The notes under the pieces are model-generated. The model was not told where the DNA came from. It did no database searches and saw only the letters and a program-made list of their open reading frames with translations. Shown here in pieces: positions 5,437 through 40,189 of a stretch of DNA of 64,000 bases. Positions within the stretch are counted from its first letter, which is position 1. Every line of letters begins with the position of its first letter. This DNA is from Minisyncoccota bacterium (lineage in GTDB: Bacteria > Patescibacteriota > Minisyncoccia > Phycocordibacterales > UBA9973): contig DATDWM010000017.1 of NCBI GenBank assembly GCA_036517375.1, forward strand, positions 3,208 through 67,207, in the 5' to 3' direction. The translations under genes were made by a program, and so were the position numbers.

Positions 5437-5439
5437 AAT

Positions 5440-11515: not shown

Positions 11516-11525
11516 TATGTGCGTG

Positions 11526-14945: not shown

Positions 14946-14946
14946 A

Positions 14947-15078
14947 TTATTTAGATCTTTTTCCTTTGCGAGCTCTCTTAGCCGCAAGCATAGCGTGCTT
15001 GATAGCTAGGCGCTTCTTGGTTTTGTGTGAACGTCTTGATTTTTTCTTCGGACTTAAAGTTGTGCTTCGTTTTGCCAT
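14947..15078 (-). CDS. 43-aa highly basic protein, possibly ribosomal protein bL34-like (not in ORF track)
   Basis: MAKRSTTLSPKKKSRRSHKTKKRLAIKHAMLAAKRARKGKRSK; length/composition and KRARKGKR tail resemble bL34. Confidence 0.4.
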   Translation of the reverse strand: MAKRSTTLSPKKKSRRSHKTKKRLAIKHAMLAAKRARKGKRSK

Positions 15079-15149
15079 GATATTTTAATTAAATTTATAA
15101 GCTAAGCCAGTATACCTTAATTCAATGATTTATGGAAGGCCCAGAAGAT

Positions 15150-16922
15150 CTAAGACCTTTCTCCTATCTGCTGGCGCCACATAGCGCTATAGAGTCCCCC
15201 TTTATCCAAGAGCTCAGTGTGTGAGCCATGTTCGGTAATGCTACCTTTTTCTAATACATAAATAGTGTCGGCATGCATGATGGTAGAGAGTCTATGTGCG
15301 ATGAGTATGGTAATGTGAGAACTCTTCGTAGATATTTTTTTGGAAAGATCTTTTATGGTTTTACTTATTTCTTCTTCCGTCAGAGAGTCAAGTGAACTCG
15401 TAGCTTCGTCAAAGATTAAAATATTGGGTTTGCGGAGTAAGGCGCGCGCAATGGATAAACGTTGTTTTTCTCCGCCGGAAACCTTGACCCCACCCTCACC
15501 AATGAGCGTGTCGAGCCCTTTACCCGCCCGTTCCAACAAGTTCTGACATTGGGCTTTATTTAAAGCGTCCATACATTCTGCATCTGTAGCAGTAGGCCGA
15601 ACGAAAAGCAAGTTCTCGCGTATCGTGCCGGCAAAGAGCTGCGTATCTTGGGTCACGAATCCGATCTGCACTCTTAGGTCTTCTTTATTCACAAGTTCGA
15701 AAGGTATATCATTATAATATATTCCCCCCTCTGTGGGCAAATAAAGCCCCACCAATAATTTGACTAGCGAGGTCTTCCCTGAGCCAGAGGGACCCACGAA
15801 AGCAATAGTCTGCCCACGAGTAACATTGTAGGAAATATTTTTAAGAGCCTTCTCACTGCTTGAATCATACTTGAAGGACACATCCTTGAAAGATAGATTT
15901 TCTATTGCGCCAATGTGTTTGGGGTCAGTGGCTACCTTTTCCTTGGGCGTGTTCATTAACTTTTCGAAATTCGCGAGGGAAGCTTCTGCTTCACGATACG
16001 TTCCTATTATGGCGCCAAGTTCTTGCAATGGAGTAAAGATATAAAAAGAGTATATGTAGAGGGAAAAGAATTGCCCGAAAGTAATAGTGCGATTAAAAAT
16101 TAAATATAACAAAAAGAATAAAATACTAGTGCGCAAGAAATTGATCACAGTGCCTTGAATAAAAGAAAGTGACCGTAGATAGCGGAGTTTTTTTAATTCT
16201 AAGATTAAGATCTTCTCGGTGGTGCTGTTTAGGCGTTCTACTTCCTGACCTGCTAGGCCTAGGCTCTTCACAAGCTCAATGTTCCGGAGTGACTCAGTAG
16301 TGGAGCCTGCTAAAGCCGTAGTTTCCGCCACTATCAGTGTCTGAATGTCTTTTATTTTCTTTGAAAGAAGTAGACTCATGCCAGAAATAACGGGAATGGT
16401 TGCAAAAAAAGCTACCGCTACCCCCCAATATATACTAGTGGCATAGATAGCTACAAAAATAAAACCGATTAAAGAAATAAATAGTATATTGACCAGTGCT
16501 GCTATTAACTTTTCTGTATCTTGTCTTACTTTTTGTAATTTACCCAGCGTCTCCCCGCTCCGTTCATCTTCAAAGATGCTATAAGGAAGTGACAGTGAGT
16601 GGGATATACCGTCCCGATACAAGTCCGCCCCTACTCTCTGACTGATACCATTTAGGAAATAGTCTTGGAAATTCTTGGCCACTCGGGATACGAAGGCCAC
16701 CCCCACAATAGCTAGTAGTAGTAGCCCAATCCCTTTGAAAAATTCAGGTTTGGTATACATATCCGGCTTTGTAGCATATTCATCGATAACATGCTGGAAG
16801 ATGTAAGGGTCAAGCAAAGAAAAAGTCTGGTTGATGGTGGCCAGCGTCAGGGTTAAAACACAGAGTTTCCAATATTTCTTTAAATAACTATAAAAAATAC
16901 GCATAAGGCTCCATCTTAGCAC
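15150..16922 (-). CDS. ABC transporter, fused permease/ATPase exporter (MsbA-like)
   Basis: 6 TM N-domain; Walker A GPSGSGKTS, signature LSGGEKQRLSIARAL, Walker B ILIFDEATS. Confidence 0.85.
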   Translation of the reverse strand: MLRWSLMRIFYSYLKKYWKLCVLTLTLATINQTFSLLDPYIFQHVIDEYATKPDMYTKPEFFKGIGLLLLAIVGVAFVSRVAKNFQDYFLNGISQRVGADLYRDGISHSLSLPYSIFEDERSGETLGKLQKVRQDTEKLIAALVNILFISLIGFIFVAIYATSIYWGVAVAFFATIPVISGMSLLLSKKIKDIQTLIVAETTALAGSTTESLRNIELVKSLGLAGQEVERLNSTTEKILILELKKLRYLRSLSFIQGTVINFLRTSILFFLLYLIFNRTITFGQFFSLYIYSFYIFTPLQELGAIIGTYREAEASLANFEKLMNTPKEKVATDPKHIGAIENLSFKDVSFKYDSSSEKALKNISYNVTRGQTIAFVGPSGSGKTSLVKLLVGLYLPTEGGIYYNDIPFELVNKEDLRVQIGFVTQDTQLFAGTIRENLLFVRPTATDAECMDALNKAQCQNLLERAGKGLDTLIGEGGVKVSGGEKQRLSIARALLRKPNILIFDEATSSLDSLTEEEISKTIKDLSKKISTKSSHITILIAHRLSTIMHADTIYVLEKGSITEHGSHTELLDKGGLYSAMWRQQIGERS

Positions 16923-16938
16923 AAAATTCGGAAATTAT

Positions 16939-17688
16939 TTAGGGTGCGGGATACCACTCGAGCTGTATAACTTCAACCTCTTTATTCCCTGCATTTACAA
17001 TTTGTTTGAATTTAGCCACGTCACTGAAACCCTCTGGTGTGCGATAGTGATATGGATAAACTGCGCCAGGCTTGAACGCCAAGACTGCATCCGCAGCTTC
17101 CTCAACGCCCATGGTGTACGGTAAATTCATTGCGACAAAGGCTAGATCAATACCTATTAAATTCCTCATCTCCGGGATGCCTGCGGTGTCGCCAGAGATA
17201 TATACTCTCTTGTCACCTCTCTCCACTACGTAACCATTACCACGGCCCTTCAGGTGATAACTCGTAGGAGACTCTGGTAAATTATACATTGGTATTGCTT
17301 CTATTTTAAAACCAGCATGGTCCAGCACCTCACCATTGTTCATTACTAACACTTGAGGTTTGAGCTCTTCTGGTATTTCGTCCGCTACCGCCTGAGGCGC
17401 CACGATTATTGTCTGTGCTTTTGTGACAGTCTTTAAGGCTTCTACGTCTAAATGATCACCGTGAATATCTGTAAGTAAAATCAAGTCCGGAATAGCTAGA
17501 CCTTCGAACACCTTCGCCTCCCCAACTGGATCAGTATATACCGTCATTCCATCCCAGTTTAAAACCATACTGGCATGGGAAATAGGCACAACGCTCACCT
17601 GGCTCACATTTTCCTCAATTTGATTTTTATTCATTTTAACAAAAAAAATTAAACCTAATACAACTATCACTATAAATATTATTTTCAT
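16939..17688 (-). CDS. Metallo-beta-lactamase-fold hydrolase, secreted
   Basis: Signal peptide; TDIHGDHLD (HxHxDH) motif. Confidence 0.7.
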   Translation of the reverse strand: MKIIFIVIVVLGLIFFVKMNKNQIEENVSQVSVVPISHASMVLNWDGMTVYTDPVGEAKVFEGLAIPDLILLTDIHGDHLDVEALKTVTKAQTIIVAPQAVADEIPEELKPQVLVMNNGEVLDHAGFKIEAIPMYNLPESPTSYHLKGRGNGYVVERGDKRVYISGDTAGIPEMRNLIGIDLAFVAMNLPYTMGVEEAADAVLAFKPGAVYPYHYRTPEGFSDVAKFKQIVNAGNKEVEVIQLEWYPAP

Positions 17689-21956: not shown

Positions 21957-23474
21957 CTATCTGGGGATTTTAGACACTTCAAAAATAAAACGTTTACGTC
22001 TTGTGTCTTCAGGCTTATACTCCCACCCTGTGCCATATCTATCTATTTTACTTTTATCTAGGTCTCCACAGGTTATAAGTCTTAATTTATTTTTTCTTAA
22101 AAATGTTTTAAGATACTTACCTTTAATAACTAAAACACTACCGTGGTCTGCCAAATGATGTTTATCCTCTCCATAGTTACTAACACTTGATACAAAGCCA
22201 TTTTGCCAATTTATAGTTTTAATCACTAATTCATTTTTACTAGTATAGTATTCCAGTGTCCCTTTGCGTTGTTTTAATTTAAGCTGTTCAACTATTTCTG
22301 GTGCAGGAAAGACAGGATTAAAAATATCGCCAAAATTTGTTTCTGAAATTATTCCGTAAGCAGGAAACAACTTACCATTTAGTTCTGTTCTATTGTGGTC
22401 AGAAACAAATAATTTCTTACTTTTATAAGCAAATATTGGAACTTCATCAATTAAACAGTTGTTACAACTATAAGAAGGCGGGAAAACTTCTTTTTTATCA
22501 TTTATTTTATTTAAATTTTCTGTCGTAAAACCGCTAAAAGTCTTACGGGAGAGCAATTTATCTTCAAAACGAATGCGTGTGTCCTCATATAACACAACCC
22601 ACGGCTGGTTTAAACCTGTTAGATTATAGATGTTCTTCCTCTTTAATTTGTCTTTCAACCAAAATTCTGTTTTTACCTTAATATTCTCGAATTTTATAAA
22701 ATCTGGTCTATCGGTAATCAAGTCCTCAACCCACACTGGTTCATAATTATAATTCTCCTGTAAAAACTCCCTCCAGCGAGATTCTTCGACTGGTAAGTTT
22801 TTTATACACCACATTAGAAAAGTTTGTATCCCGTGATAGGCACAATAATGCAATTTAGTTTTATAGGACTCATTTCTGGAGTAACCCCGATTCCACCTAG
22901 TAGGTACATCTTCCCAGTATTTTTTACCCTTTCGATAACCAAGCACCTTCATATTCTGCAACAATTTCTTGTAACCTTTTTTGCCCGCATATTTAAATGT
23001 ATTGCATATGTTATCAAGCTTATATTTGTAGTCACCCCCTCCTAGGGTGTACTCTACGAAATGTTCAGAACTATATCGATACCAATCTTGCTGGGTATCG
23101 GGAGTAAACTGTGTGGGGGTAACTAATTTAAGAGACTCCGCAAATATATTCTTAGCAGAAGATTTAAAATTACTTAGATTTTCCAAGATATTTTTTGATA
23201 AATAAGCAATCTTGAAATGGTTACAGCGTTTTGCAGTTTTTAAGATACTTTCTTTGATGGAAAGTATTCTTTCGGGAGCCTTGTAGCTAAGACGAAATAA
23301 AACTTTTAGAGAGTTCTCGACTATATCTAGGTTCTCAGAAAGTAGATTTTTCCTTAGTTCATTAATGGTTTTTTCATTAATTAGAGCATTTTCATATAGT
23401 GCTTTTTCTGCACTACCTCTCCATTTAAAAGGGGCAACACCGAGATATTTAGATATAAATTGTAAGGATTTCAT
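21957..23474 (-). CDS. Hypothetical protein, 2nd gene of NTPase operon
   Basis: Starts 4 bp after stop of 1578-aa gene; no recognisable domain. Confidence 0.5.
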   Translation of the reverse strand: MKSLQFISKYLGVAPFKWRGSAEKALYENALINEKTINELRKNLLSENLDIVENSLKVLFRLSYKAPERILSIKESILKTAKRCNHFKIAYLSKNILENLSNFKSSAKNIFAESLKLVTPTQFTPDTQQDWYRYSSEHFVEYTLGGGDYKYKLDNICNTFKYAGKKGYKKLLQNMKVLGYRKGKKYWEDVPTRWNRGYSRNESYKTKLHYCAYHGIQTFLMWCIKNLPVEESRWREFLQENYNYEPVWVEDLITDRPDFIKFENIKVKTEFWLKDKLKRKNIYNLTGLNQPWVVLYEDTRIRFEDKLLSRKTFSGFTTENLNKINDKKEVFPPSYSCNNCLIDEVPIFAYKSKKLFVSDHNRTELNGKLFPAYGIISETNFGDIFNPVFPAPEIVEQLKLKQRKGTLEYYTSKNELVIKTINWQNGFVSSVSNYGEDKHHLADHGSVLVIKGKYLKTFLRKNKLRLITCGDLDKSKIDRYGTGWEYKPEDTRRKRFIFEVSKIPR

Positions 23475-23478: not shown

Positions 23479-26400
23479 TTATGCTTTTGTTAAAGATAAC
23501 CGCATAGATTCTTCGACCGTTTCTTTTAGAGGATGGAAAGCATACTTCTTCAATTCAGGAAAAAAAGAATCTATAACGTCTGAGGTTCTGACTAATAAAT
23601 AATTCAAATAATAACTACTTTCTGATGACTTATAAATAGAGAGACGGATAACTTTTTTTAGAAATTCCTTTTTATTTTCAAATTCCATTTGTGCTAGCTT
23701 ATTAACAAGCTCTGGAAGATTGTATGGATATTCTTGGTTGTTGCAAAAATCCAAAATGTCCCCCTTAATCTCCTTAAGGTAAGCTTTGTCCTTATTTTTT
23801 ACAGACAAATCAAGTAGTGAACATAGAATATTGTAGGTAAGAAATTCAACGTTATTTTCTTTACACCACAGTTTTACCTTGCTAATAATTTTAAGGTCAG
23901 AGTTTGAAACAATCTCTAGTATTAAACCATCAATTTTATATTTTTTATCTTCCTTAATAAAAGAATCTAGTAATCCAGTTATCTTTTTCATAGACCTGTT
24001 CCGTGCAAAAGATTTAGCCTGTTTAATGACTGCTAGCGGTATTAACTCTGAGTTAGGGGTAGTTGGTATCACTGAATATCCGTCAAGTTCTAATTGGGCG
24101 ATATACTTCTTTATATCCCCATACTCTCTTTTTAAATCATTCTTTTGTTTTATAAACGTTACTAATTCATTTAATAGGGTTAATCTTGCCCCAACATATA
24201 CATATCTACGCAAGTAAATACAATATCTACTTAAAAATAATCTGGCGTTAGGAATATCATTATTTTTTAGAGAGTGGTCAATCAAGGCGTAGTAAATAGC
24301 TTTGATATTTGGTTGTTCTCGGTCAGTCTCTTCATCAAATCTTACTAAACCTAGCAATGGCATTAGTTCTGGAGCAATAGTTTGATATTTATACCTATCA
24401 AGACTAGCCAGAATTACTTTTTTTAACCCCTCATTCAAATTAACTTCTCCTTTGTTTGTCAGTTCTATTAGATAATCAAGACCTAATTCATAATTTGAAT
24501 ATGCAACTGATTCTATAAAACCTAATTTATAATACCAGCTACCCTCAACAACACTACTGATTTTATCGATATATTTAAGAATGGTTTCAAAATCATCTTT
24601 TTTATTTTGAGTTCTAAGACAGTCAATTAAATTCAAAATTCTCAAATCCTCTTTTGCCCATAAGCCACGAGAATATTTAAGAGAATGCTTATAGATATTC
24701 TCTGCTGATTCTCTATAACCCTTACTATTTACTGTTCTTGCTAATTCCTTCAGACCATCACTTTTTGCAAAATTATCTTGCTTTTCTTTGGTTTTAAATT
24801 CAAGTATCTTTTTTTGGTATAACACTACCTTTGATACTAAGGCGGGGGTGATTGGCAACAGTTCATCGAAGGTGGTCTCTAATAAACTTTGATTTTTCTC
24901 TAAGATTGTATTTTTGAAAACCGATTCGACGACATCAACAAAAGATTCTAATTTTTTAGGAAAATACTTAGCTACAGTATTCAAACAAATCCCTACGAAT
25001 GAAGTTGCATTTTGATAGTAGACAAAAGCTGTTTTCTCAAAAGGAGATTCTCTTAGTTGTTTATACTCACTAACTTGTGAAATTTCCTTTTTAAATACAC
25101 TAAGACTTTCCATAATAAAATGGTTTAATCTTTTCCAGTCCATTTTTTTATTTTTTACAAAAAGAATATTACGGTAAAGCAATATGTAGGTTGAAACTAT
25201 GTTAGCGAAAGCATCATTCTCATAGTCCTTAAAATGTTCTTTATGATATTTTTTCTGGGCATCAATGAGAAATTCCTTCGGATTAAAATTTTTAGTAACA
25301 ATACTTAACAAAGCGGTTCTTCGGAGGAATAACCCCTTGCCGTTTATTCCCCAGTTAGAATACATATCTCTGTGATAAGGTGGCTCAAAGTCAACTCCAG
25401 AAATTAATTTAGATATGGAAGATTTTGATTCGCTTGTGTTTAACAAATATGAGACTTCGGCTATATCTAGTTTCTGATTTATATATCGGTCGTTGATTAA
25501 ATATTTGAATAACTGATACTGTTTAATAAGAGTTTTGAGTTTCTTTTTGGCAGTAGTATCTTTTTTCTCTATATAAAGATACGCATAGGTTATGAGCTGT
25601 ATTGCCTTGGATTGCCTATTTATAAAATGTAACACTGCCTTTTTTTCTTTTGGGTATTGAACTCTATTCAACTTTATTAACATACTAGCTCGGAATCCCA
25701 CTGTATAAGGTTTAGGCTCTTTAAAACGAATATTTTCAATATATCTTACAGCTCCATCGTATCTACCTAAGTTAATACAAGCTTCTAAATACTCTACGAT
25801 ATTATCCCAGTACATATCCGTATTACCATTTTCCATCATTTTTCTATCCCAAAGAATATCTTTATTAAAAGAAATACGAGCTAATCCATCTTCTAAAAAT
25901 CGAAGGGCTAAATTTTTAGAAGGACTGTCTTCTCTGGTATATAAAAAATTACCCAATCTAATTCGCTTCATTACCCATTCTCTTAAATTGTACAGAGATT
26001 GGTTTTGTAATACATCAAGTTCAGCCTCAACTTCTTTAAGAAGGTTCGGTGTACCGATACTGCTTTTCAGAAAAGTATCGTCATCGGACATCCGAGCAGG
26101 ACTTAAATTACTAATCTTAACTGAATATTTAATAAAATTCTCTAAATCATTTTTTGCATCAAAGTATTTTGTAAAATAATGTAAAGATTCAATTTTTGAA
26201 CCATAATCTAGTTTAGAATCAAAAATTGTTTGAATGAAATTATTTTGAATTAACTTCTTTGTAATTTGCTTAGTAAACGGGTCAGAACTGCCAATTACCC
26301 GCAAATGATTAGTTAAGTATTTTTTCGGATAGGCTAATTTGAGATTACCTTTAGTTGAATAGAATCTTATTATTTTTCGGTTATATTCTTTCTGAACACT

Positions 26401-28215
26401 TGTTAGTTTATTACGAATGAATCTTCTAAAACTATCGTGGTATGGTTCGATATATCCTCCACGCAAGTTCACGAAGGGACTTATTTTTTCGTTAAGGTCA
26501 TTAAAATTCTCTAACTTAATTTTCGCTACCTTATAGAGTGTGTCTCTTTGGATTTCAGCAAAATGAAAACTTAGACAACCAAGACAGTGTTTCTGTCTTG
26601 TGTTCAGGCTGTCCCAGATGGGTTTATACCAATCGAAGACTTCTTTATAATCTTCTTTGCTGTCTATAATGCTGTCATAGTCTTTTCTTGAAATCTTTTT
26701 TAACTTTTGTGTTAAATAAAAAATAGAAATAGCCAACCCTTTCGTTTTTTTAGATATTTTTCTTAATTGGTCAATAGTTAGATTAATTTCCGCATTTTTA
26801 AAATATTCTTTTATTTCATTCTCGCTAAATGACAAACTAATAGAAATCTTTCTAGAAGTTTTGTCTGGAAGGTTTTTTATCTGTTGCGGAAGATATTCTT
26901 TTGTCCAAGTACTTAACAAAAAGACTACGCCAGCATATTGAATTGAAGGTATGGCATTTAGGATAGACTTATCTTTGTAGTTGTCAGTTTCTACTTGGTC
27001 TAAAGCGTCTACAATTATTACAATTTTTTTATCCTTACGTTTTAATGCTGATTCGCTTACTTGATTTAATGTTTTCTCAAACATTTTATTTATAAATTCT
27101 TCATTATCCTTAAGGCTGACAGTTTCTTTTGTAAGTCCCAAGTCAAAAAAGCGTTGAATCAGGTCAACCTTAAACCACATACTACTTAAACGTTCTTTCT
27201 CATAATTTAAATTCGAGTCAATTTTCTCAAAAGGTCTAATACGACAAAGGTAGGGTAAAAAATCAGCGTTGGTTTGTGTAAGCTTTGAGAGTAAGACTGT
27301 TTTCCCCGAACCAGAGGGGGCAAAAAGGAAAACGAAACCACCTTTCTTTTTTTGTTTATTTACAGCTTTAAGTATCTCAACTTCAACCGCTTTTCTTTGA
27401 ATGTAATTTTTAGGAGTATTTATCTCGTGAACTAAACTCGTTTTAATAATTTCAATCAATCCAAGTACATCCGCCTTTCTAATGATAGTTTCTTTTTGAG
27501 TAAATTTTTTAAAGGTTCTACTTATAAAAGCATCAACTCTATCATTATCAGAAATGCCAAGAAGCCCTAATTCTTTTTTGAGTTTGGATTCTATGCCGTC
27601 ATTGTCTGTGGAAATTTGAAATTCAAAAGATTTTATAAAAGCTTCTAGTTCGCCACGCTTTAGACGAGTTTTAGTGAAATTAGATTTAATGTTTAAAAGT
27701 TCCGTTTTATATTTATCACTAAATTTACTCCAAGTTATCTTTTTCTGATTCAACTTTTTTATATCACTAAGAAACTTCTTCAAGTCTGACCCAAGTGGTT
27801 TGTTGCTAGCAAGAATTAACTTAACTTTATTCTTTTGTCCTTTATGAAATCTCCAAGCTTTAAGGAATTTAAAAATTACAGTTCCTTCGTACTTAGAATT
27901 TTTCTTAGCACTTTTTTTCTTGGCAGTTTCCTTGGATTCCCATAGACCACTATAAGTCCAACTACTGCTTACTACATCAGTGTACTTAAGTTGAATGACT
28001 TCAATGGACTTATCTTCAAAAAATCGGGTTATGTCCTCTATACGTCTTTTTGCTCCTCCTTTCCTGTCTGGTTTGATTTCGACATAAGAAAGCTTACTAT
28101 CGGTCTTTATTAATTTTGTAAACTCTAGAGCAGAAAAAACCTTTTCGAAGTACTGAGAAGTATCTTCGTTTCGATTTAGTATATGACTTTTGGATGTCTT
28201 CTTTTTTCCTTTCAT
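23479..28215 (-). CDS. Giant (1578 aa) P-loop NTPase, STAND/AVAST-like candidate defence protein
   Basis: Walker A GGFVFLFAPSGSGKTVLLSK (~aa 297), Walker B KIVIIVDALDQVE (~aa 400), >1100-aa helical C-terminal region, N-terminal region with PD..QLK (PD-(D/E)xK-like) pattern. Confidence 0.6.
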   Translation of the reverse strand: MKGKKKTSKSHILNRNEDTSQYFEKVFSALEFTKLIKTDSKLSYVEIKPDRKGGAKRRIEDITRFFEDKSIEVIQLKYTDVVSSSWTYSGLWESKETAKKKSAKKNSKYEGTVIFKFLKAWRFHKGQKNKVKLILASNKPLGSDLKKFLSDIKKLNQKKITWSKFSDKYKTELLNIKSNFTKTRLKRGELEAFIKSFEFQISTDNDGIESKLKKELGLLGISDNDRVDAFISRTFKKFTQKETIIRKADVLGLIEIIKTSLVHEINTPKNYIQRKAVEVEILKAVNKQKKKGGFVFLFAPSGSGKTVLLSKLTQTNADFLPYLCRIRPFEKIDSNLNYEKERLSSMWFKVDLIQRFFDLGLTKETVSLKDNEEFINKMFEKTLNQVSESALKRKDKKIVIIVDALDQVETDNYKDKSILNAIPSIQYAGVVFLLSTWTKEYLPQQIKNLPDKTSRKISISLSFSENEIKEYFKNAEINLTIDQLRKISKKTKGLAISIFYLTQKLKKISRKDYDSIIDSKEDYKEVFDWYKPIWDSLNTRQKHCLGCLSFHFAEIQRDTLYKVAKIKLENFNDLNEKISPFVNLRGGYIEPYHDSFRRFIRNKLTSVQKEYNRKIIRFYSTKGNLKLAYPKKYLTNHLRVIGSSDPFTKQITKKLIQNNFIQTIFDSKLDYGSKIESLHYFTKYFDAKNDLENFIKYSVKISNLSPARMSDDDTFLKSSIGTPNLLKEVEAELDVLQNQSLYNLREWVMKRIRLGNFLYTREDSPSKNLALRFLEDGLARISFNKDILWDRKMMENGNTDMYWDNIVEYLEACINLGRYDGAVRYIENIRFKEPKPYTVGFRASMLIKLNRVQYPKEKKAVLHFINRQSKAIQLITYAYLYIEKKDTTAKKKLKTLIKQYQLFKYLINDRYINQKLDIAEVSYLLNTSESKSSISKLISGVDFEPPYHRDMYSNWGINGKGLFLRRTALLSIVTKNFNPKEFLIDAQKKYHKEHFKDYENDAFANIVSTYILLYRNILFVKNKKMDWKRLNHFIMESLSVFKKEISQVSEYKQLRESPFEKTAFVYYQNATSFVGICLNTVAKYFPKKLESFVDVVESVFKNTILEKNQSLLETTFDELLPITPALVSKVVLYQKKILEFKTKEKQDNFAKSDGLKELARTVNSKGYRESAENIYKHSLKYSRGLWAKEDLRILNLIDCLRTQNKKDDFETILKYIDKISSVVEGSWYYKLGFIESVAYSNYELGLDYLIELTNKGEVNLNEGLKKVILASLDRYKYQTIAPELMPLLGLVRFDEETDREQPNIKAIYYALIDHSLKNNDIPNARLFLSRYCIYLRRYVYVGARLTLLNELVTFIKQKNDLKREYGDIKKYIAQLELDGYSVIPTTPNSELIPLAVIKQAKSFARNRSMKKITGLLDSFIKEDKKYKIDGLILEIVSNSDLKIISKVKLWCKENNVEFLTYNILCSLLDLSVKNKDKAYLKEIKGDILDFCNNQEYPYNLPELVNKLAQMEFENKKEFLKKVIRLSIYKSSESSYYLNYLLVRTSDVIDSFFPELKKYAFHPLKETVEESMRLSLTKA

Positions 28216-28396: not shown

Positions 28397-28831
28397 ATGC
28401 CAGCAGGAAGACCAACAGAATACAGTGAAAACATACTCTCTAAATCAAGAGAGTATGTTGATTCTTGTGTGGATGAGCTAGAAGACCGACCAAAAACAGT
28501 TGGGACAAAATCCACTTCCTACGAGAGGGTTATCAAGGTTAATTTACCTACAATAGAAGGTCTGGCGAGCCATTTAGGGCTTGCTAGAAGCACTTTATAC
28601 GAGTGGAAGGACAAATACACTGAATTTTCGGACATCTTAGAGATACTTTTAGCACATCAGGCAACTGCTCTTATTAATAATGGTTTGTCAGGAGACTATA
28701 ATGCGACCATAGCTAAGCTTCTTCTAATGAAGCACGGCTATAAGGAAGATGCCCGAATATACGAGAGAATCACTGGGAACGAAATTATCTTCAAGGATAT
28801 GTCTGTGGTAGGAGTTAGTGAGTCCGATTAA
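28397..28831 (+). CDS. HTH DNA-binding protein resembling phage terminase small subunit
   Basis: N-terminal GRPTEY and HTH LPTIEGLASHLGLARSTLYEW pattern typical of TerS-like proteins. Confidence 0.45.
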   Translation: MPAGRPTEYSENILSKSREYVDSCVDELEDRPKTVGTKSTSYERVIKVNLPTIEGLASHLGLARSTLYEWKDKYTEFSDILEILLAHQATALINNGLSGDYNATIAKLLLMKHGYKEDARIYERITGNEIIFKDMSVVGVSESD

Positions 28832-31631: not shown

Positions 31632-32196
31632 AAAAACAAAATGGAATTGAGTGCGGAAGCAGTAAAAGATTTGAGGGAAACACTAGAACTGGAAATAGGA
31701 GTGAGGAATACAAACAGGATGAGTGATAACGACTTAGAACATATAGGTTGTTTTTTCCTTGAAACTTTTAAGCAGGGTTTGAAGAGAAGAGTGTCTAAAA
31801 TTTAATATCTAAAACAGCTTTAGGGGTTCGCTGTATAAACCACTCCTATAAACGAAACCAGTAAATCGGACTCAAATGCGAAAGCACGGAAAAACAGTTT
31901 ATCCCTCTGTCCGTGCCATCTGATTTGTGCCTGATTGCTGATTACAGAAAATGGATTTTCAAAGGTAAGTCGCATTTGTTTGTAAAAGATATTGATAAAT
32001 ATAGCTGTAATAATTACCTTTTAGAGAGAATCAGAGGTAAAAGGGAGGGTGTGTCTAAAATGAGAAAAATGTTATAATGAGGAAGCCAGACCGAGTGAAA
32101 ATCTATAAGCCACATTTAGTAATGCTTGTAGGTAAGAATGAGGTAGCAACCACTTGGTCTGGCGATTAAGTAAAGTTGTTACCTCATTTTTATTTT

Positions 32197-33876
32197 ATGA
32201 ATCCAATAGATTTTACAAAGTTAAAGGTAGGAAATTACAATCGTAAGTCGTCAGAGAGTGAAGATAGGCAGGTTCTTTCAATTCAATCACAGATTGATGA
32301 AGCTAAAAGAATAGCGGATTATTATAAACTCTCTCCATATGTAGAGGTATACAAAGAATCAAAATCAGCTAAAACAGAAGGTGTGAGACCAGAGTTTTCG
32401 AGGATGATGAAAAGAATAAGAAATAAAGAGATTGATGCGATAGCGTGTTGGAAAGCTGATAGACTAGCAAGAAATATGGCAGAGGGCGGTGAACTAATTG
32501 ACCTTTTGAGTTCTGGAACTTTAAAGGCAATAATCACTCACGATAAAGTATTCTATCCTTGGGATAATGTTATGGTTTTAGCAATAGAGTTTAGCCAAGG
32601 AAAACAATTCGTAAAAGAACTCTCTATAAATGTTAAGAGGGGTCAAACTAAAAAGGCAACTATGGGTTATCCGCACGGACTAGCCACTCTTGGCTTCACA
32701 AACGACAAAACAGAAGAGAAAGGAAATCGTAAATGGCTAGTGGACGAAGTTCGTCTTCCTGTAGTTAAGCAAATGTTAGAAATGTTTTTATCTGGTAATT
32801 ACTCTGGCACACAAATCTATGATTGGGCTATTAATGTTGCCAAACTAACTACCCCTAATCACAAAAAATGTGGTGGAAATTTTATTGCCTACTCTAGGGT
32901 TTATACAATTCTTAAAGACTCTATCTATGCTGGATTTTTCTACCAGCAAGGACAAAGGTATGAATTGTCTAAAGAACTCCCTCGTCTTATTTCAGAAGAT
33001 GACCATAAGAAGATTTTAAGAATGTTGTCTAGTAGAAAACTTCCAAAGACTCAAACTCACGAAAATCCTTACTCTGGTTTTATAGAATCTCCTTCTGGTG
33101 AATTTGTAGGAGCAGATATGAAGTTTCAAATAATTTGCCAGTGTAAACACAAGTTTGCATATCAAAATAAAACAAACTGTCCTAAATGCGAAATAGCCAT
33201 AAACGATATTAAAAACCCTAAGTATCTTAGTTATGCTTATTACTACAACGTGCCAAAAAGAAAGAAGAGAGAATCCGTAAAATACATCGAGGAGGGCAAA
33301 ATTACCACTTTTTTTCGCTTATATGCAGAGAAAAATCTAACTATGTCAAAATCCCTAGCCCAATGGTGCAAAAGACACATTAAGGAGATAAAAGACAAAG
33401 AGATAGAGACAGGTTTAATTGAATCCTCTGGTAATACTCAACGATTAGAGCAATTAGAGGGACGATTAACTAGATACCGTCAAATGCTTGCAGATGGTCA
33501 AATTGAAACTTCTGAATATGATTCCGATGTAAAATCAATAAAGGATGAAATTTCAGAAATTAAAAATCCTAAAATTAAAAATCGTGATTGGCATCAAGTT
33601 GCAGAAGATATTGTTGATTTAACTACTGAAATAATTGAAACGCTGGAAAATGGTTTGGTAAAAGACCAAAGAGCGATGTTTACAAAGCTTGGTTCGAACC
33701 TAATATGGAATGAGGAAATACTAAATATTATCAACGCAGAACCAATGCAGAAGCTGATTGATGGCTTAAATGAAGCTAAACAAAAGAATCCCAAGTTCGA
33801 ACCTGAAAATATTGTTGATACAACAGAACAGAATGAGGTTTTTGAGGACATTTGTCCTATCTTGCTCCGGGGGTAG
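32197..33876 (+). CDS. Large serine recombinase (resolvase/invertase-type catalytic domain + recombinase/zinc-ribbon/coiled-coil C-terminal region)
   Basis: N-terminal YNRKSSESEDRQVLSIQSQ (catalytic Ser), ...ARL..., Cys pairs (CQCKHKF...CPKC), ~560 aa; ATG at 32197 preferred over upstream TTG. Confidence 0.85.
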   Translation: MNPIDFTKLKVGNYNRKSSESEDRQVLSIQSQIDEAKRIADYYKLSPYVEVYKESKSAKTEGVRPEFSRMMKRIRNKEIDAIACWKADRLARNMAEGGELIDLLSSGTLKAIITHDKVFYPWDNVMVLAIEFSQGKQFVKELSINVKRGQTKKATMGYPHGLATLGFTNDKTEEKGNRKWLVDEVRLPVVKQMLEMFLSGNYSGTQIYDWAINVAKLTTPNHKKCGGNFIAYSRVYTILKDSIYAGFFYQQGQRYELSKELPRLISEDDHKKILRMLSSRKLPKTQTHENPYSGFIESPSGEFVGADMKFQIICQCKHKFAYQNKTNCPKCEIAINDIKNPKYLSYAYYYNVPKRKKRESVKYIEEGKITTFFRLYAEKNLTMSKSLAQWCKRHIKEIKDKEIETGLIESSGNTQRLEQLEGRLTRYRQMLADGQIETSEYDSDVKSIKDEISEIKNPKIKNRDWHQVAEDIVDLTTEIIETLENGLVKDQRAMFTKLGSNLIWNEEILNIINAEPMQKLIDGLNEAKQKNPKFEPENIVDTTEQNEVFEDICPILLRG

Positions 33877-33936
33877 GGATCGAACCTACGACCAATCGCT
33901 TAACAGGCGACCGCTCTACCGCTGAGCTACCCCGGA
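33865..33936 (-). tRNA. tRNA-Asn (anticodon GTT)
   Basis: Cloverleaf folded manually: acceptor TCCGGGG/CCCCGGA, D-arm GCTC-AGCGGTA-GAGC, anticodon stem GTCGC/GCGAT loop CTGTTAA, T-arm GTAGG-TTCGATC-CCTAC; no encoded CCA. Confidence 0.85.
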
Positions 33937-34083
33937 ATTTTATTTTCAAAAGAGGAAAGAAAACCGTACAATACTCTCGACCTACGGTCGCTGGTACTTT
34001 TCCATCTCTTCGCAAATTGGCGAATCGTACGAAAAAGCCTTTCTCATCCTGGCGCAAGCAAAGCAGTTTGCTTGCTTACGATG

Positions 34084-34156
34084 TGGACCGTACAGGACTC
34101 GAACCTGCCACCCCCTCATTGCAAATGAGGTGCTCTACCAGATGAGCTAACGGCCC
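34084..34156 (-). tRNA. tRNA-Ala (anticodon TGC)
   Basis: Acceptor GGGCCGT/ACGGTCC with G3:U70 Ala identity pair, anticodon loop TTTGCAA, T-loop TTCGAGT. Confidence 0.85.
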
Positions 34157-35087: not shown

Positions 35088-35564
35088 TTACAAACTTAAA
35101 CGTACCCGATCCCCCACTTTAATATTATTTTTATCCGAAAATCCAGACTCTACTTCTAGTACATACTTAGAGTTTTCTCTGGGACCATAAGTTTCCAGTT
35201 GCTTTTCCGACTGTGGCTCGGCACCTTTTTTGATATAAATTATTTCCAAATTCTCATCTATCCAAATTATATCAATGGCAAATTTCATATCCTTCATCCA
35301 GAAATAATGCTCGAACGAATTTTCAAAAACAAATAGCATCCCTCGGGATGCACCAAGCCCCTCTCTCCCTGAGAGGCCGAGTTGTTGTTCCTCTGCCGAG
35401 CGCGCAAGCTCTACTTCCACCTTACTTTCTCCTAGTCTCACGTATTTAATACTCTCTGGGCTCGCGAGATCTACACCGCTCGGCGCATAGTTAAGAAAAG
35501 AAAAAACAACTATTAGGAAAAATATAACGATAGCAAAGCTTTTCATCATTTTAGTGGTCGCCAT
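35088..35564 (-). CDS. DUF192-family protein
   Basis: GMLFVFE..FWMKDM..IDIIWIDENLEII..YVLEV..IKVGDRV pattern; N-terminal TM. Confidence 0.6.
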   Translation of the reverse strand: MATTKMMKSFAIVIFFLIVVFSFLNYAPSGVDLASPESIKYVRLGESKVEVELARSAEEQQLGLSGREGLGASRGMLFVFENSFEHYFWMKDMKFAIDIIWIDENLEIIYIKKGAEPQSEKQLETYGPRENSKYVLEVESGFSDKNNIKVGDRVRLSL

Positions 35565-36954
35565 TTGTCCAGCCGAAGAGCTTGCCTATAGATTCAGCGT
35601 TTTCACGTTTGCGAGCAATTTTTACCGTTCCGTCTTGGACAATTATTTTCATTGGAGCTGAGAGCAAGCAGTGGTGAGAAGAAAGTCCGTCTTGATAAGC
35701 GCCAGTGTCGAGTACTGAAACAAATTGGTCCTTGCCCTCATGAATCTTGGGTAATAGAATATAATTCCCGCCGTCAGTATATTTATCATCGGAATCACAA
35801 GTACTCCCCGCAAGCCAGGTACGCTTGAGCGGCTCCTGCATATTGTTTGCTGGTATGACATGCCACTTCTGGTGTATCGCCCAGGTATCCTTCAAGTCAT
35901 TCATAAAGCTACCATCTATAATGTACCAGGCATTCGCATTCGCCTTGGGAATATTTTTTTCTGAGAGCACTTTATACATTGTTATCTGTGCCGGAGCCAC
36001 CACATACTGCCCCCATTCTACAGCCAGGTTCGGGTGTCTGACGCCTGCCTTATCAGATAAATTCTTAAGCGTCTTGATAATTTTACTAGATACGCCCTTG
36101 GCAGTATAGAATTTCTTTTTCTCGTAAGGTACGCCAAATCCGCCACCGATGTCGAGCGTATCGAGCGATGGATGAGTTTTCTGTAATTGCGCATAAATAC
36201 TAAAAGCATGCTTTACTCCGTCTAGAATACTCTTCTGAGTTTTTATTTGGGAACCCATATGGTAATGCATGATTTTAAGATTTTTAATCTTGCCTAAACC
36301 AAGCACGTCTTTCTCGGAAAGTCCGAAGCGGTCAAACTTTTTATCCCAATGCGTGTCCGCCTTTATGTTGAGGTCCACACGCACACCACTATCACCTTTC
36401 AATTTTGAGATTCTCTCTATCTCTTCATTAGATTCTATTATCGGTACTATATTCATGCCCTTAGCCCGAAGTTCTTCAATCAGGTCCAAGTACTGGTCCG
36501 TCTTTGGGCCGTTACATAATACGCGAATTTTGGCATTAAATTTTTCCCCTTCCCAGAGCTTTTTTACCAACCATAGTTCGTTGGCAGAAGTTACTTCCAA
36601 ATTTGCACCCTCAGATAGAAGTGGGAGTAAGAATTCTTTATTCTGGTTTACTTTCATTGGATAGTGGTAAAAGAACTTACCTTTGTAGCCATAAATTTTC
36701 ATATATGCTTGAAAATATCCGATCAAGTCCTTGAGCCTGTCTTCAATAATGAATGGGAAAATAACTTGGAGAGGTGTGCCATACTTTTGCGCTAAATCAT
36801 TTAGGTTATAAATATGGTGGCCTTCCGTTGCAGTCAAATCACCATCTTTATTTACACCGAAGAACTGAGTGTTGAATTCATCAACACCCAGCTTCCAAAA
36901 TTTTCTCCAATTCTTCTGCTGCTTCTTTGTTTTTTTATTTTTATTTTTATCCAC
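35551..36954 (-). CDS. speA: Arginine decarboxylase-like PLP decarboxylase (short SpeA-type)
   Basis: TPLQVIFPFIIEDRL...YHYPMKVNQNKEF (SpeA N-terminal pattern), YHMGSQ, LDIGGGFGVPY. Confidence 0.65.
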   Translation of the reverse strand: MDKNKNKKTKKQQKNWRKFWKLGVDEFNTQFFGVNKDGDLTATEGHHIYNLNDLAQKYGTPLQVIFPFIIEDRLKDLIGYFQAYMKIYGYKGKFFYHYPMKVNQNKEFLLPLLSEGANLEVTSANELWLVKKLWEGEKFNAKIRVLCNGPKTDQYLDLIEELRAKGMNIVPIIESNEEIERISKLKGDSGVRVDLNIKADTHWDKKFDRFGLSEKDVLGLGKIKNLKIMHYHMGSQIKTQKSILDGVKHAFSIYAQLQKTHPSLDTLDIGGGFGVPYEKKKFYTAKGVSSKIIKTLKNLSDKAGVRHPNLAVEWGQYVVAPAQITMYKVLSEKNIPKANANAWYIIDGSFMNDLKDTWAIHQKWHVIPANNMQEPLKRTWLAGSTCDSDDKYTDGGNYILLPKIHEGKDQFVSVLDTGAYQDGLSSHHCLLSAPMKIIVQDGTVKIARKRENAESIGKLFGWTNGDH

Positions 36955-37069
36955 TTCTTTATTCGAGGGCGAATTGAATTAGTATATCAAGCTGTCAACA
37001 AATGTAAATGCTAAAACACCCTACATCTGTATATTATACACCCATTCTGTCTTTTTGTCAAGCTAATTT

Positions 37070-38359
37070 TTACTTCTTCAAATACCCTTTTAAAAATCGC
37101 TCTTTTAGCTCATAGAAAGTGTCGTCTATGACAGCCTGGCGGATGTCCTTTACTAGGTTCACGATAAAGTAGAGGTTGTGAATGGAGGCCAGAGTGCCAG
37201 CCAGCATTTCCTTAGCATGAAAGAGGTGCGCGATGTAGGCCCGAGTGTAGTTAGTACAGCTATAACAGCCACAACCCTTTTCGATCGGAGTGAAATCACT
37301 TCTAAAAACCTTGTTCATAATTATGATCTTCCCCTCTTTAGTATAAATGGTGCCATTACGGCCCAGACGCGTCGGCGCCACACAGTCGAAGAGATCTACG
37401 CCATTCTCCACACCTTCAAATAAATCCTCGGGCTCGCCTATGCCAAGCAGATGCCGCGGCTTCCCCTCGGGCAGAATTTCATTTACCCATTTCACAGCAC
37501 TCGACATATCCTCCTTAGCAAAGGATCCGCCGATGCCATATCCATCAAAGTCTAAAGTTTTTAAAAACTCTGCGGATTTTTTCCTCAAATTTTCATCCCG
37601 CCCGCCTTGCACAATGCCGAAGAGGGCGGGAACGAAGCTTCCTCCGGTTTTTCTGAGTGAGGAATTCGGCTCGGCCGTACGTAGCGAGGAAAAATCGGAG
37701 GAAGCGGAAAGACGCTGGTGCTCAGCTAAGCTCCTCTCCGCCCAAGCGTGCGTACGATTGAGCGCCTCTTCCTGATATTTTAAATCTTCTGCTGGTGACG
37801 TACATTCGTCAAAAGCAAAAATTATATCCGCTCCCAGGTTGTGCTGAATTTGAATAGACTTCTCAGGAGTGATGTAATGAATAGAGCCGTCGAGATGCGA
37901 TTTGAAGGACACACCGTCCTGCCCTATTTTAGCCAAGCGTGGCGCAGCGCTATCATCAAAGCGTTCAGGTACCAAGAGCGATGGATCGATAATTTTTAAA
38001 ATTTTTGAAATATCTTTGCCGTAAGCTGCGCCTAAAGAGAAAACTTGGAACCCTCCAGAGTCCGTCATAGTGGGGCCAATATTTCCGTCCCCGCCACACC
38101 AGTTCATAAATTTACCAACGCCTCCAGCCTCTCTCACTAGTTCATCCCCAGGCTGTAAATATAAATGATAGGTATTGCCCAAAACGACTTCCGCGCCTAA
38201 GTCTCGAACCATGTCTGGAGTAAGAGATTTTACCGAAGACTTAGTTCCCACTGGAACAAAAGCCGGTGTATGAATAACTCCGTGTGGCGTCCGCAGAACC
38301 CCCGCACGGCCAAGACTACCTTTTAACTTTTTTTCTATTTCAAAAGAAAAATTTTCCAT
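37070..38359 (-). CDS. tgt: Queuine tRNA-ribosyltransferase with ~20-aa in-frame insertion
   Basis: FVPVGTKSSVKSL..LGNTYHL, zinc site CGCYSCTNYTRAYIAHL; extra segment relative to canonical Tgt between RS and ALFG. Confidence 0.85.
   Translation of the reverse strand: MENFSFEIEKKLKGSLGRAGVLRTPHGVIHTPAFVPVGTKSSVKSLTPDMVRDLGAEVVLGNTYHLYLQPGDELVREAGGVGKFMNWCGGDGNIGPTMTDSGGFQVFSLGAAYGKDISKILKIIDPSLLVPERFDDSAAPRLAKIGQDGVSFKSHLDGSIHYITPEKSIQIQHNLGADIIFAFDECTSPAEDLKYQEEALNRTHAWAERSLAEHQRLSASSDFSSLRTAEPNSSLRKTGGSFVPALFGIVQGGRDENLRKKSAEFLKTLDFDGYGIGGSFAKEDMSSAVKWVNEILPEGKPRHLLGIGEPEDLFEGVENGVDLFDCVAPTRLGRNGTIYTKEGKIIIMNKVFRSDFTPIEKGCGCYSCTNYTRAYIAHLFHAKEMLAGTLASIHNLYFIVNLVKDIRQAVIDDTFYELKERFLKGYLKK
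37648..37695. repeat. 48-bp GC-rich intragenic element, copy B (inside tgt, antisense to the gene, in frame)
   Basis: tttttctgagtgaggaattcggctcggccgtacgtagcgaggaaaaat flanked by 9-bp inverted repeat CTTCCTCCG/CGGAGGAAG. Confidence 0.65.
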
Positions 38360-39162
38360 TAAATTTCCACTTCCACAAATTTTAACTCCTGAATATTTAC
38401 TGGACTCGCAAGCAATGCTTTTGTAAAGGAGTCTCTAGGGTCAGAGAGAATAGTTTCCACCACTCCCAGCACATACGGCGTGATCCCCGGCAGAACAACT
38501 GTGTCCCCCTTCGAAATTATAAAATCTCTAGGCACAATCATTTCGAAATTCCCTCCCCCTCGCCCAACCACTGAAATGAAAGCACCATCACTTGCTATTA
38601 CTACTTCTGTTTTCTCGCCCGGATTCGTAAATAAAATTACCTTAGATGAAAATGGATTCACCTCGCCTACCCGCCCGATCGGCACGTTACCTAATGCAAA
38701 AACCAAATTCCCCACAGCAATATTTTTATTCTGATTATTGCTACTGCCCACATCGATGATTAGAGTGTCGTAGGGGCTCCGGTTCGGCTTGGCTAGGATA
38801 GCCGAGAGGAGCAAGTTCTGATTTTCGGTTTTTCGGCCCAATGCTTCCTTAAAAGAAATATTTTCCGCTACTGTGGCATGATAGTTCGACATTTCCGCAT
38901 CTCTTTGAGCTAATTCGGATTTTAAATTTTCATTTTCCTCTGACAGGGATTTCTTTGACGAAAAGTAAGAGAAAAACCCACCAAGCTTCCCCCCGACACT
39001 ATTACCGGCTACAAAGACAGGTCTTAGTGTAGTACTACTTACATAGGAAAGCGCAGAGAAAATACTAGACCTAAAATAAATCAAAATAAGAAAAAACAAA
39101 ACACCGAAAACGATGCTATAGGTTTTCTTCTTTCGTGTTTTTTTATCTTGGAGGTAGCTCAT
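38359..39162 (-). CDS. mreC: Rod shape-determining protein MreC
   Basis: N-terminal TM, coiled coil, beta-rich C-domain; immediately downstream of mreB with overlap. Confidence 0.7.
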   Translation of the reverse strand: MSYLQDKKTRKKKTYSIVFGVLFFLILIYFRSSIFSALSYVSSTTLRPVFVAGNSVGGKLGGFFSYFSSKKSLSEENENLKSELAQRDAEMSNYHATVAENISFKEALGRKTENQNLLLSAILAKPNRSPYDTLIIDVGSSNNQNKNIAVGNLVFALGNVPIGRVGEVNPFSSKVILFTNPGEKTEVVIASDGAFISVVGRGGGNFEMIVPRDFIISKGDTVVLPGITPYVLGVVETILSDPRDSFTKALLASPVNIQELKFVEVEI

Positions 39163-40189
39163 CTTGATTCTTGATCAAAACATCCCGATAGGACTCTAGG
39201 TCGTCTAATATTACTCCTGTTCCGCGCGCCACAGCCGAGAGCGGGTCATCCACCACGTAGACAGGAATCTTGAGCACACTCCCGAGCAGCTGGTCGAGCC
39301 CCGGTAGAAGAGCGCCACCTCCCGAGAGAGTGATACCGCGATGCATAATGTCGGAGAGAATTTCAGGTGGAGTTGTTTCTAGCGTGTCTTTGACCCCGTT
39401 TACCAGCTCCCGAACAGAAGTTGAGATTGCCTCCCTCACATCTGAGTCCGTCACCACCACTTCCCGTGGAAGCCCTGTTAGTAAATCCCGGCCGTGGACT
39501 TCCGTCTCCATATACTCTCCCGGAATTACCGAACCGATAGCTATTTTAATATTTTCCGCAGTTCGCTCGCCGATAAGTATTTTAAATTCATCTCGCATGT
39601 AACTCATGATGTCATTGTTTAGTCGGTCTCCCGCTATTTTTAAATTCTTTGATTTCACAATGCCGCCTAAAGATATAACCGCAATGTCCGTGGTTCCTCC
39701 ACCGATGTCTATAATCATAGAACCTACTGGGTCCTGTATCGGCATCCGTACGCCGATTGCTGCGGCCATGGGTTCCTCCACTAGATAAACCGCGCGAGCA
39801 CCGGCCGAGCGAGCCGCATCATATACTGCGCGAGTCTCTACGTTGGTGGTGCCAGAAGGCACTCCCACCACTACTCTGGGCTTGCCTAACTTCTTGGATA
39901 TTTTATCCGCCTTGCCGATAAGGTAAGAGAGCATTTCTTCCGTTACTTCGAAATCTGAAATAACTCCGTCCACCAGAGGGCGTATCGCCCGGATGTGCCC
40001 CGGTGTCCGCCCCAGCATTTCTTTAGCCTTCATGCCGACAGCTAGAACTTGATTTGTCTTAATGTTAACTGCCACCACGGAAGGCTCGTTAATAACGATG
40101 CCGTGACCTTTCAAGTAGACTAAGGTATTAGAAGTACCCAAGTCTATACCTATATCGTTTGAAATTAATTTATAAAATTTTTTAAACAT
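39143..40189 (-). CDS. mreB: Rod shape-determining protein MreB (actin-like)
   Basis: IGIDLGTSNTLVY phosphate-1 motif, 348 aa. Confidence 0.9.
   Translation of the reverse strand: MFKKFYKLISNDIGIDLGTSNTLVYLKGHGIVINEPSVVAVNIKTNQVLAVGMKAKEMLGRTPGHIRAIRPLVDGVISDFEVTEEMLSYLIGKADKISKKLGKPRVVVGVPSGTTNVETRAVYDAARSAGARAVYLVEEPMAAAIGVRMPIQDPVGSMIIDIGGGTTDIAVISLGGIVKSKNLKIAGDRLNNDIMSYMRDEFKILIGERTAENIKIAIGSVIPGEYMETEVHGRDLLTGLPREVVVTDSDVREAISTSVRELVNGVKDTLETTPPEILSDIMHRGITLSGGGALLPGLDQLLGSVLKIPVYVVDDPLSAVARGTGVILDDLESYRDVLIKNQDELPPR

Follow-up and report, generated by a model that had tools for sequence, protein, structure and literature searches.

Results

Gene content of the locus

The DNA analyzed here is a stretch of 64,000 nucleotides (the window) from contig DATDWM010000017.1 of assembly GCA_036517375.1, a metagenome-assembled genome (MAG) of Candidatus Paceibacterota (Minisyncoccota), within the candidate phyla radiation (CPR). 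Its minus strand carries a giant open reading frame (ORF) whose product, HEY4503193.1, was deposited as a "hypothetical protein" and is predicted to be an NTPase resembling the antiviral STAND (Avs) proteins and headed by a nuclease domain. A second gene, also deposited as hypothetical, begins 4 nt after the NTPase stop codon and is referred to below as the partner gene. The pair and the features of its N-terminal nuclease domain are as follows (positions of the window, with amino acid [aa] numbers of the giant ORF).

23479..28215 (-): giant ORF, 1578 codons, predicted Avs-like NTPase of the STAND class, nuclease at the N terminus
21957..23474 (-): partner gene, 505 aa, HEY4503192.1
27436..28164 (-): aa ~18-260, predicted Cap4/DUF4297-type PD-(D/E)xK nuclease domain, from an AlphaFold2 model, Foldseek and weak profile matches
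28144..28146 (-): E24, invariant Glu of the YFE motif on helix alpha1, candidate accessory active-site residue
28042..28074 (-): K48-R58, invariant basic loop KPDRKGGAKRR between beta1 and beta2, containing the PD
27985..28041 (-): aa 59-77, beta2-turn-beta3 hairpin with the proposed catalytic triad D61/Q75/K77
28033-28035 (-): D61, in RRIED on beta2, proposed catalytic Asp
27991-27993 (-): Q75, first residue of the QxK on beta3
27985-27987 (-): K77, last residue of the QxK on beta3

The N-terminal motif and its conservation

An earlier note on this DNA had pointed to a PD-(D/E)xK-like motif in the span 27350-28215, which corresponds to aa 1-289 of the giant ORF, built from the strings YVEIKPD and EVIQLKY separated by 22 residues. 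Both strings are present in the translation of 23479..28215 (YVEIKPD at nt 28066-28086 and IQLKY at nt 27982-27996), where the sequence reads S43-Y44-V-E46-I-K48-P49-D50, then R-K-G-G-A-K-R57-R58, I59-E60-D61-I-T63-R-F-F-E-D-K-S-I and finally E72-V-I-Q75-L-K77-Y78; the gap between D50 and E72 is, however, of 21 residues. A bare PD...QxK pattern is unremarkable on its own, and the motif rises above chance because it is conserved among homologs and is supported by the structure described below.

Homologs were collected with an exhaustive HMMER scan of 1.84 billion cluster representatives, which yielded nine proteins, four of them full length (1540-1573 aa); about 17 further loci came from genome and metagenome contigs, which were also scanned. 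A word-indexed protein search returned only one 99%-identical fragment of the giant protein, and its profile version contributed little. Two alignments were built, one of 9 sequences (A1) and a second of 18 sequences combining full-length proteins and fragments. The full-length homologs are 36-87% identical overall. In both alignments, E24, K48, P49, D50, R51, G54, R57, R58, I59, D61, T63, Q75, K77, E110, G111, K116 and N138 are invariant, and the pattern KPDR..G..RRI[ED]D.T...Q.K was found in nine of nine additional metagenomic loci. Thus, the residues named in the earlier note (P49, D50, Q75 and K77) do not vary in the family despite an overall identity as low as 36%, which indicates a strongly constrained motif rather than a chance occurrence of PD and QxK.

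The named relatives come from MAGs of Saccharibacteria, Nomurabacteria, Nealsonbacteria, Falkowbacteria, Parcubacteria, Levyibacteriota and Minisyncoccia, together with two Ignavibacteria MAGs. No match was found in phage genomes by tblastn, and a scan of the 2.9 million viral contigs of IMG/VR revealed no relative. Six of the loci (L010, L011, L012, L021, L022 and L026) are near-identical copies of one member, alike in both their N-terminal and partner sequences, and sit in MAGs labeled Nomurabacteria, Saccharibacteria and Nealsonbacteria; such copies across differently labeled MAGs suggest a recent horizontal spread of the island that carries them, or inconsistent binning or taxonomy.

Predicted fold and profile matches of the N-terminal domain

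The AlphaFold2 model of aa 1-290, computed from alignment A1, reached a predicted local distance difference test (pLDDT) score of 79.8 and a predicted template modeling score of 0.73. Its elements are a helix at 19-36, strands at 42-49 (beta1), 59-66 (beta2) and 70-77 (beta3), a helix at 113-125 and a strand at 130-137, followed by a helical subdomain up to residue ~260. The alpha-beta-beta-beta-alpha-beta core of restriction endonucleases, the fold by which the nuclease prediction was to be judged, is therefore found in the model. The QxK lies on beta3, whereas the PD straddles the boundary between strand beta1 and the beta1-beta2 loop instead of lying at the start of beta2.

Foldseek returned 12 PDB matches at E<=1e-3, and all 12 are Cap4/DUF4297-type nuclease domains of defense proteins. 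The top match is SeAvs3 bound to terminase (8dgc_A, E 1.7e-8; 8dgc_B, E 2.3e-6), followed at rank 2 by the Escherichia coli Hachiman protein HamA/AbpA (8zue_A, E 1.2e-6); Lamassu LmuA (9nxx, 9hr5) and CBASS Cap4 (6vm5, 6wan, 6wam, 7yib, 6vm6) are also within this cutoff. Weaker matches were obtained to HerA-DUF4297 (9c1m, E 2.3e-3) and DUF4297 (8zgi, E 0.11). The first Mrr-related entry, the Mrr-like MspJI, appears at rank 29 with an E value of 0.046, after about 24 Cap4-type chains, and nothing below E 1e-3 was found among the viral structures of BFVD.

The sequence profiles point in the same direction at a lower level of significance. PF14130 (Cap4_nuclease) is the only Pfam family matched by more than one of the nine members; the matches occur in two homologs (P0004, aa 61-159 against profile positions 45-129; P0005, aa 52-88 against positions 38-74) at 13.7-13.9 bits (E 0.064 and 0.073). 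The gathering threshold of 26.2 bits was reached by no member, and the window protein itself had no PF14130 match. The PADLOC model PDLC00741 ("Effector," "Endonuclease," 489 positions) matched weakly at aa 104-223 (E 0.0023), and none of the nine members matched Mrr_cat of Pfam at E<=10. Consequently, the N-terminal domain is Cap4-like by its predicted structure without passing the Pfam threshold for membership. The restriction-endonuclease-like fold suggested in the earlier note stood, while its Mrr subtype gave way to the Cap4/DUF4297 type. The same note had suggested that the domain would be the effector, given that Avs proteins often carry N-terminal nucleases, and the model supports this idea, as its best structural match is the nuclease that heads the Avs protein SeAvs3.

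Residues of the active site

To place the catalytic residues, the family profile was aligned with hhalign to E. coli AbpA (abpA, yfjL, b2628, of strain K-12), whose sequence is that of PDB 8zue_A; the resulting alignment was identical under two settings. Simple pairwise alignment with AbpA resulted in a false register, and hhalign was preferred. Q75 and K77 pair with AbpA Q58 and K60, I59-E60-D61 with V42-T43-D44, and the segment SWTYSGLW with RWNISDIV. On helix alpha1, YFEK is aligned with FLFQ, placing E24 opposite Q18 in the GFLFQ helix of HamA. The residues P49 to R58 stand opposite a 10-residue gap in HamA/AbpA. In the two PF14130 alignments, the QxK falls on columns 54-56 and the Asp of RRIED, by extension, on approximately column 40; both alignments begin at or after the RRIED segment, so the PD lies upstream of both.

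The active site of AbpA/HamA consists of D45/Q58/K60, and mutations in it abolish nuclease activity and defense (PMC11914072); the equivalent triad of Bacillus HerA-DUF4297 is D41/E59/K61 (10.1101/2024.10.24.620088). Because hhalign and both PF14130 alignments match the QxK and the Asp of RRIED to D45/Q58/K60, the active site most likely comprises D61, with E60 beside it, and Q75-x-K77, the catalytic Asp being D61 and not D50. In the AlphaFold2 model, strands 59-66 and 70-77, which hold these invariant residues, form a hairpin with a three-residue turn, and the strand registers would have D61 facing Q75 across the hairpin, on the same face as K77. E24 on alpha1 is probably also part of the active site.

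Regarding the catalytic PD...QxK proposed in the earlier note, the QxK was retained and the Asp of the PD was not, as P49-D50 belongs to the P49-R58 insertion and D61 is the likelier candidate. P49-D50 opens a family-specific loop insertion, KPDRxxGxxRR, in which the confidence of the model is lower (pLDDT 67 for residues 51-60). A role in DNA contact or in gating of the active site is more likely for this loop than that of providing the canonical Asp. In SeAvs3, loop 41-60 occludes DNA (PMC12803255). If the two loops are equivalent, KPDRxxGxxRR may gate the site or contact DNA in a similar way.

STAND NTPase module and C-terminal region

Downstream of the nuclease domain, the protein is divided into an NTPase module and a long C-terminal region.

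26356..27369 (-): aa ~283-620, STAND NTPase module, from motifs and sub-threshold Pfam matches
27298-27321: aa 299-306, Walker A, APSGSGKT
26995-27024: aa 398-407, Walker B, IVIIVDALDQ
aa 432-437: FLLSTW
26725-26742: aa 492-497, GxP-like motif, KGLAIS
26419-26445: aa 591-599, MHD-like (YHD) motif, PYHDSFRRF
23482..26355 (-): C-terminal ~960 aa, no domain match

APSGSGKT, IVIIVDALDQ, FLLSTW, KGLAIS and PYHDSFRRF are invariant in the family, which identifies the module as a STAND NTPase; with reference to the motifs of STAND and NB-ARC proteins, we take KGLAIS to be the GxP-type motif of the helical domain and PYHDSFRRF to hold the MHD-type His of the winged helix. The matches of the window NTPase to NPHP3_N, NACHT, AAA_16 and nSTAND5 of Pfam are all below threshold. 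The NCBIfam model Avs1b was matched over aa 369-625 by homologs P0004 and P0005 (E 1.1e-6 and 1.4e-5) with scores of 26 and 22 bits against a cutoff of 1500, and it did not match the window protein. None of the curated Avs1-5 models of PADLOC and NCBIfam was matched at its cutoff, and Avs3a of NCBIfam (NF041816) matched none of five NTPases. The only PADLOC match of the NTPase is a P-loop match to mad8, present in all five full-length members scanned.

The C-terminal region is conserved over its whole length in the homologs. Its only signal is a weak match to a tetratricopeptide-repeat protein (BBS4) at profile positions 803-910 (E 0.11), and this region is presumed to be a helical-repeat sensor.

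The partner gene

In every complete locus examined, a co-evolving homolog of the partner (471-510 aa) lies directly downstream of the NTPase gene, and its start often overlaps the NTPase stop codon (4-nt overlap). The identity of the partner across loci (34-87%) tracks that of the NTPase (36-85%). Copies were located in six related loci.

L001, 14699-16219: partner copy
L002, 9712-11223: partner copy
L003, 12791-14206: partner copy
L004, 9060-10583: partner copy
L005, 10001-11518: partner copy
L008, 10001-11518: partner copy

Searches of Pfam, PADLOC and PHROG gave no match for the partner, and no known catalytic domain was detected in it. Its profile weakly matches the ARM repeats of APC at aa 28-107. 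The AlphaFold2 model of the partner is poor (pLDDT 42) and confident only in a helical-repeat N-terminus, for which Foldseek gave only weak ARM-repeat matches. Taken together, the N-terminal ~25-115 aa are ARM/HEAT-like.

At the other end of the partner, aa 389-492 match positions 1969-2066 of the 2083-position NCBIfam model Avs3a at a weak 11 bits (E 0.031), as is the case for two of five homologs. The 1578 aa of the NTPase and the 505 aa of the partner sum to 2083, the length of this model, and the offset of the match is colinear with a split after approximately position 1578. On these three points rests the idea of a split receptor, in which the partner may correspond to the C-terminal end of Avs3a; the agreement in length and offset is a lead only and could be a coincidence. 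More broadly, the two genes would encode an obligate two-protein Avs-like receptor, with the partner (an ARM/HEAT-like N-terminus and a beta-rich C-terminal domain) as a detached sensor or adaptor, a reading that we regard as rather unlikely.

Genomic island

The pair lies within a low-GC island at ~20-34 kb of the window, where the G+C fraction (GC) is 0.31-0.36 against 0.40-0.46 in the flanks.

32176..33876 (+): large serine recombinase, with Pfam Resolvase and Recombinase matches
33864..33936 (-): tRNA-Asn (GTT), at the island edge

The end of the recombinase gene overlaps the tRNA-Asn by 13 nt, and the same tRNA/recombinase junction occurs in L005. Homologous serine recombinases are found near the NTPase/partner pair in most loci, usually within a few kilobases, and the NTPase, the partner and the large serine recombinase are all that the window island shares with other loci. 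When exact k-mers were used to look for a second copy of part of the tRNA-Asn, as an attachment (att) repeat, none of >=14 nt was found, an absence that is expected for serine recombinases. A scan for promoters and terminators produced counts at or below shuffled expectation.

Several neighboring genes accompany the pair. In the window, a gp3-like small-terminase/helix-turn-helix gene at 28397-28831 (+) (PF16677, E 1.4e-20; PHROG terminase small subunit) adjoins the NTPase gene and is divergently transcribed; it is not conserved in related loci and could be a factor resembling excisionases or a TerS of the satellite type. In two other loci, a small HTH_17 (excisionase/MerR-like) gene lies directly upstream of the NTPase gene (L001, 9793-9966; L003, 7794-7979) and may regulate the operon or island excision. 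The Saccharibacteria locus L001 also encodes, between two serine recombinases and beside the pair, a 538-aa RVT_1 and Trypsin fusion (3784-5400, +), a candidate reverse transcriptase-based defense gene. Other genes of defense type occur near the pair in L002, L003 and L004: L002 has a SocA_Panacea domain protein (11271-11789) and a pair formed by an S8 peptidase and an AAA ATPase (13976-17278), L003 has a HEPN protein directly after the partner (14203-14646) and an HxsD/radical-SAM cluster (2622-5579), and L004 has a DNA methyltransferase (16217-17060). Host genes flank the window island, namely a tRNA-Ala at 34083-34156 (-) and, at 35551-40189, genes for an Orn/DAP/Arg decarboxylase, a tRNA-guanine transglycosylase, MreC and MreB, the last two being rod-shape genes in this Paceibacterota genome, with no relation to the nuclease motif.

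Discussion

A probable Cap4-type nuclease effector in an Avs-like protein

The invariant motif, the predicted fold and its structural neighbors, and the STAND motifs that follow make it quite probable that aa ~18-260 form a Cap4/DUF4297-type PD-(D/E)xK endonuclease, the effector of an Avs-like STAND NTPase, with a proposed active site of D61 and Q75-x-K77. The NTPase gene would thus be a divergent, unannotated Avs-like defense gene with a Cap4-type nuclease effector, lying below all curated family thresholds.

Several observations weigh against this interpretation. The AlphaFold2 model was built on a shallow alignment of nine sequences, the root mean square deviation to large multidomain targets is high (16.7 A for 8dgc_A) and the query-normalized template modeling scores are 0.40-0.57. 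The N-terminal domain has no sequence match in the PDB: single-sequence searches of Pfam, PHROG, NCBIfam and PDB with aa 1-290 found nothing, and profile searches of PDB sequences with alignments A1 and A2 gave only P-loop or spurious matches and no Avs or Cap4 chain. No part of the window protein reaches the cutoff of any curated hidden Markov model in Pfam, NCBIfam or PADLOC. The hhalign alignment to AbpA is statistically weak (E ~0.01), and the register of the Asp is off by one relative to AbpA, unless the hairpin turn holds a one-residue indel, which would make E60-D61 match AbpA D44-D45. Finally, swapping of the N-terminal effector was looked for among relatives of the NTPase and C-terminal region and none was seen, so that this family offers no such modularity, the customary argument for an effector domain.

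Nonspecific degradation of double-stranded DNA (dsDNA) that aborts infection is established for SeAvs3 and SeAvs7, and also for Cap4, LmuA, HamA and DUF4297, which respond to other activators. For the window pair, the observations concern anatomy: the motif and its conservation, the predicted fold with its structural neighbors, the STAND motifs, the pairing of the genes and their island. By analogy with SeAvs3 and SeAvs7, we infer for the window pair a trigger, an oligomerization switch, catalysis, a role for the partner and a defense phenotype. The C-terminal region would recognize a phage protein, possibly together with the 505-aa partner, after which the ATP-bound NTPase modules would oligomerize. 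The nuclease domains would thereby assemble as active dimers or tetramers, whose indiscriminate cleavage of dsDNA would abort the infection.

Comparison with known systems

The order of a Cap4-type nuclease, a STAND NTPase and a long C-terminal region is common to the window protein and SeAvs3/SeAvs7 (PDB 8DGC). SeAvs3 also has its regulatory loop 41-60 in the beta1-beta2 region where the window family has its invariant insertion, an equivalence that is presumed here (PMC12803255). On the other hand, there is no detectable sequence similarity between the two, as Avs3a and the PADLOC Avs models miss the NTPase and the PDB sequence profiles miss 8DGC; the window protein is shorter (1578 versus ~2030 aa) and comes with an obligatory 505-aa partner gene, and the hosts are CPR bacteria and Ignavibacteria instead of Enterobacteria.

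E. coli HamA/AbpA (Hachiman type I-B, 8ZUE) resembles the window domain in the D...QxK triad (D45/Q58/K60 versus D61/Q75/K77), in the alpha1 helix and in an aligned W..SD(L/I) segment after beta3. In contrast, HamA does not have the 10-residue KPDRxxGxxRR loop, and it joins its nuclease to DUF1837, with control exerted by the helicase HamB, not by a STAND NTPase. CBASS Cap4, LmuA and HerA-DUF4297 (PF14130) share the fold (E 8.5e-5 to 2.3e-3) and are all activated by oligomerization. Their activators differ, being a SAVED domain with a cyclic oligonucleotide for Cap4, the SMC-like LmuBC complex for LmuA and the HerA hexamer for DUF4297. The Mrr and Avs4-type Mrr-like nucleases belong to the same PD-(D/E)xK superfamily and share the QxK variant of the motif, although they are set apart by the lack of any Mrr_cat match in nine members and by the marginal structural match of MspJI.

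Alternative explanations

The choice of D61 has to be weighed against the possibility that P49-D50 is the canonical PD, paired with Q75-x-K77, in a domain that would be Mrr-like as in Avs4. Both residues are invariant, QxK variants are also known in Mrr-type enzymes, and, judging from the strand registers of the model, D50 at the end of beta1 shares its end of the sheet with K77 and could come close to the active site, where it may have an auxiliary role. Nevertheless, D50 stands nine residues ahead of beta2 in the model, whereas the canonical Asp opens beta2, which is the place of D61. The PF14130 alignments exclude the PD, P49-R58 comes out of hhalign as an insertion that HamA lacks, and the spacing from D50 to Q75 is 25 residues compared with 13 in HamA and 18 in DUF4297. 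Together with the absence of Mrr_cat matches and the low rank of MspJI, these points make a catalytic D50 in an Mrr-like domain improbable. Even less probable is a nuclease fold that is kept but catalytically dead, serving as a DNA-binding or oligomerization module while toxicity comes from elsewhere, such as the 505-aa partner. Inactive PD-(D/E)xK domains that recruit other effectors have been documented, for example the DUF1837 of HamA (PMC11914072), the partner is obligatory and has no assigned function, and DNA binding would be in keeping with the strongly basic character of the invariant loop. However, no residue of the D/QxK triad varies anywhere in the family, nor does the alpha1 Glu, the triad matches residue for residue one that is essential in HamA, and the partner has no detectable catalytic domain of a known type.

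A last alternative concerns the role of the pair rather than its chemistry: it would not be antiviral but a selfish module of the serine-recombinase island, acting in addiction, in the exclusion of rival elements or in the processing of the island's own DNA. The habitual proximity of large serine recombinases, the restriction of the genes shared with related loci to recombinase, NTPase and partner, and the gp3-like small-terminase gene adjoining the pair in the window are all compatible with such a role. Conversely, an effector, a STAND module and a long C-terminus in that order, with a structural match to SeAvs3, are typical of known defense proteins, defense genes are commonly carried on such islands, the 2.9 million viral contigs contain no relative, and the gp3-like gene is not conserved in the other loci. 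A selfish module is held to be unlikely, and its overlap with the interpretation as an Avs-like defense gene carrying a Cap4-type nuclease is greater than any conflict between the two.

Implications for CPR immunity

These results provide a putative function and a predicted active site (D61/Q75/K77, with K305 of Walker A) for two "hypothetical protein" genes of a Candidatus Paceibacterota MAG, and place them in a small, highly divergent family of ~20 loci that is missed by the current models used to find defense genes (PADLOC, NCBIfam and Pfam). CPR bacteria have tiny genomes with few recognized defense systems per genome (PMC12259885). Since so few are known, a 6.3-kb Avs-like module carried on serine-recombinase islands in several CPR lineages would add to the knowledge of immunity in these organisms. 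Furthermore, the partner gene and the invariant KPDRxxGxxRR loop offer handles on how Cap4-type nucleases are gated in STAND receptors. If the idea of a two-protein receptor is true, the family would represent a split STAND receptor with a recognition surface built from two polypeptides, disseminated through ultra-small CPR bacteria on serine-recombinase islands and armed with a Cap4 nuclease that has a family-specific basic gating loop.

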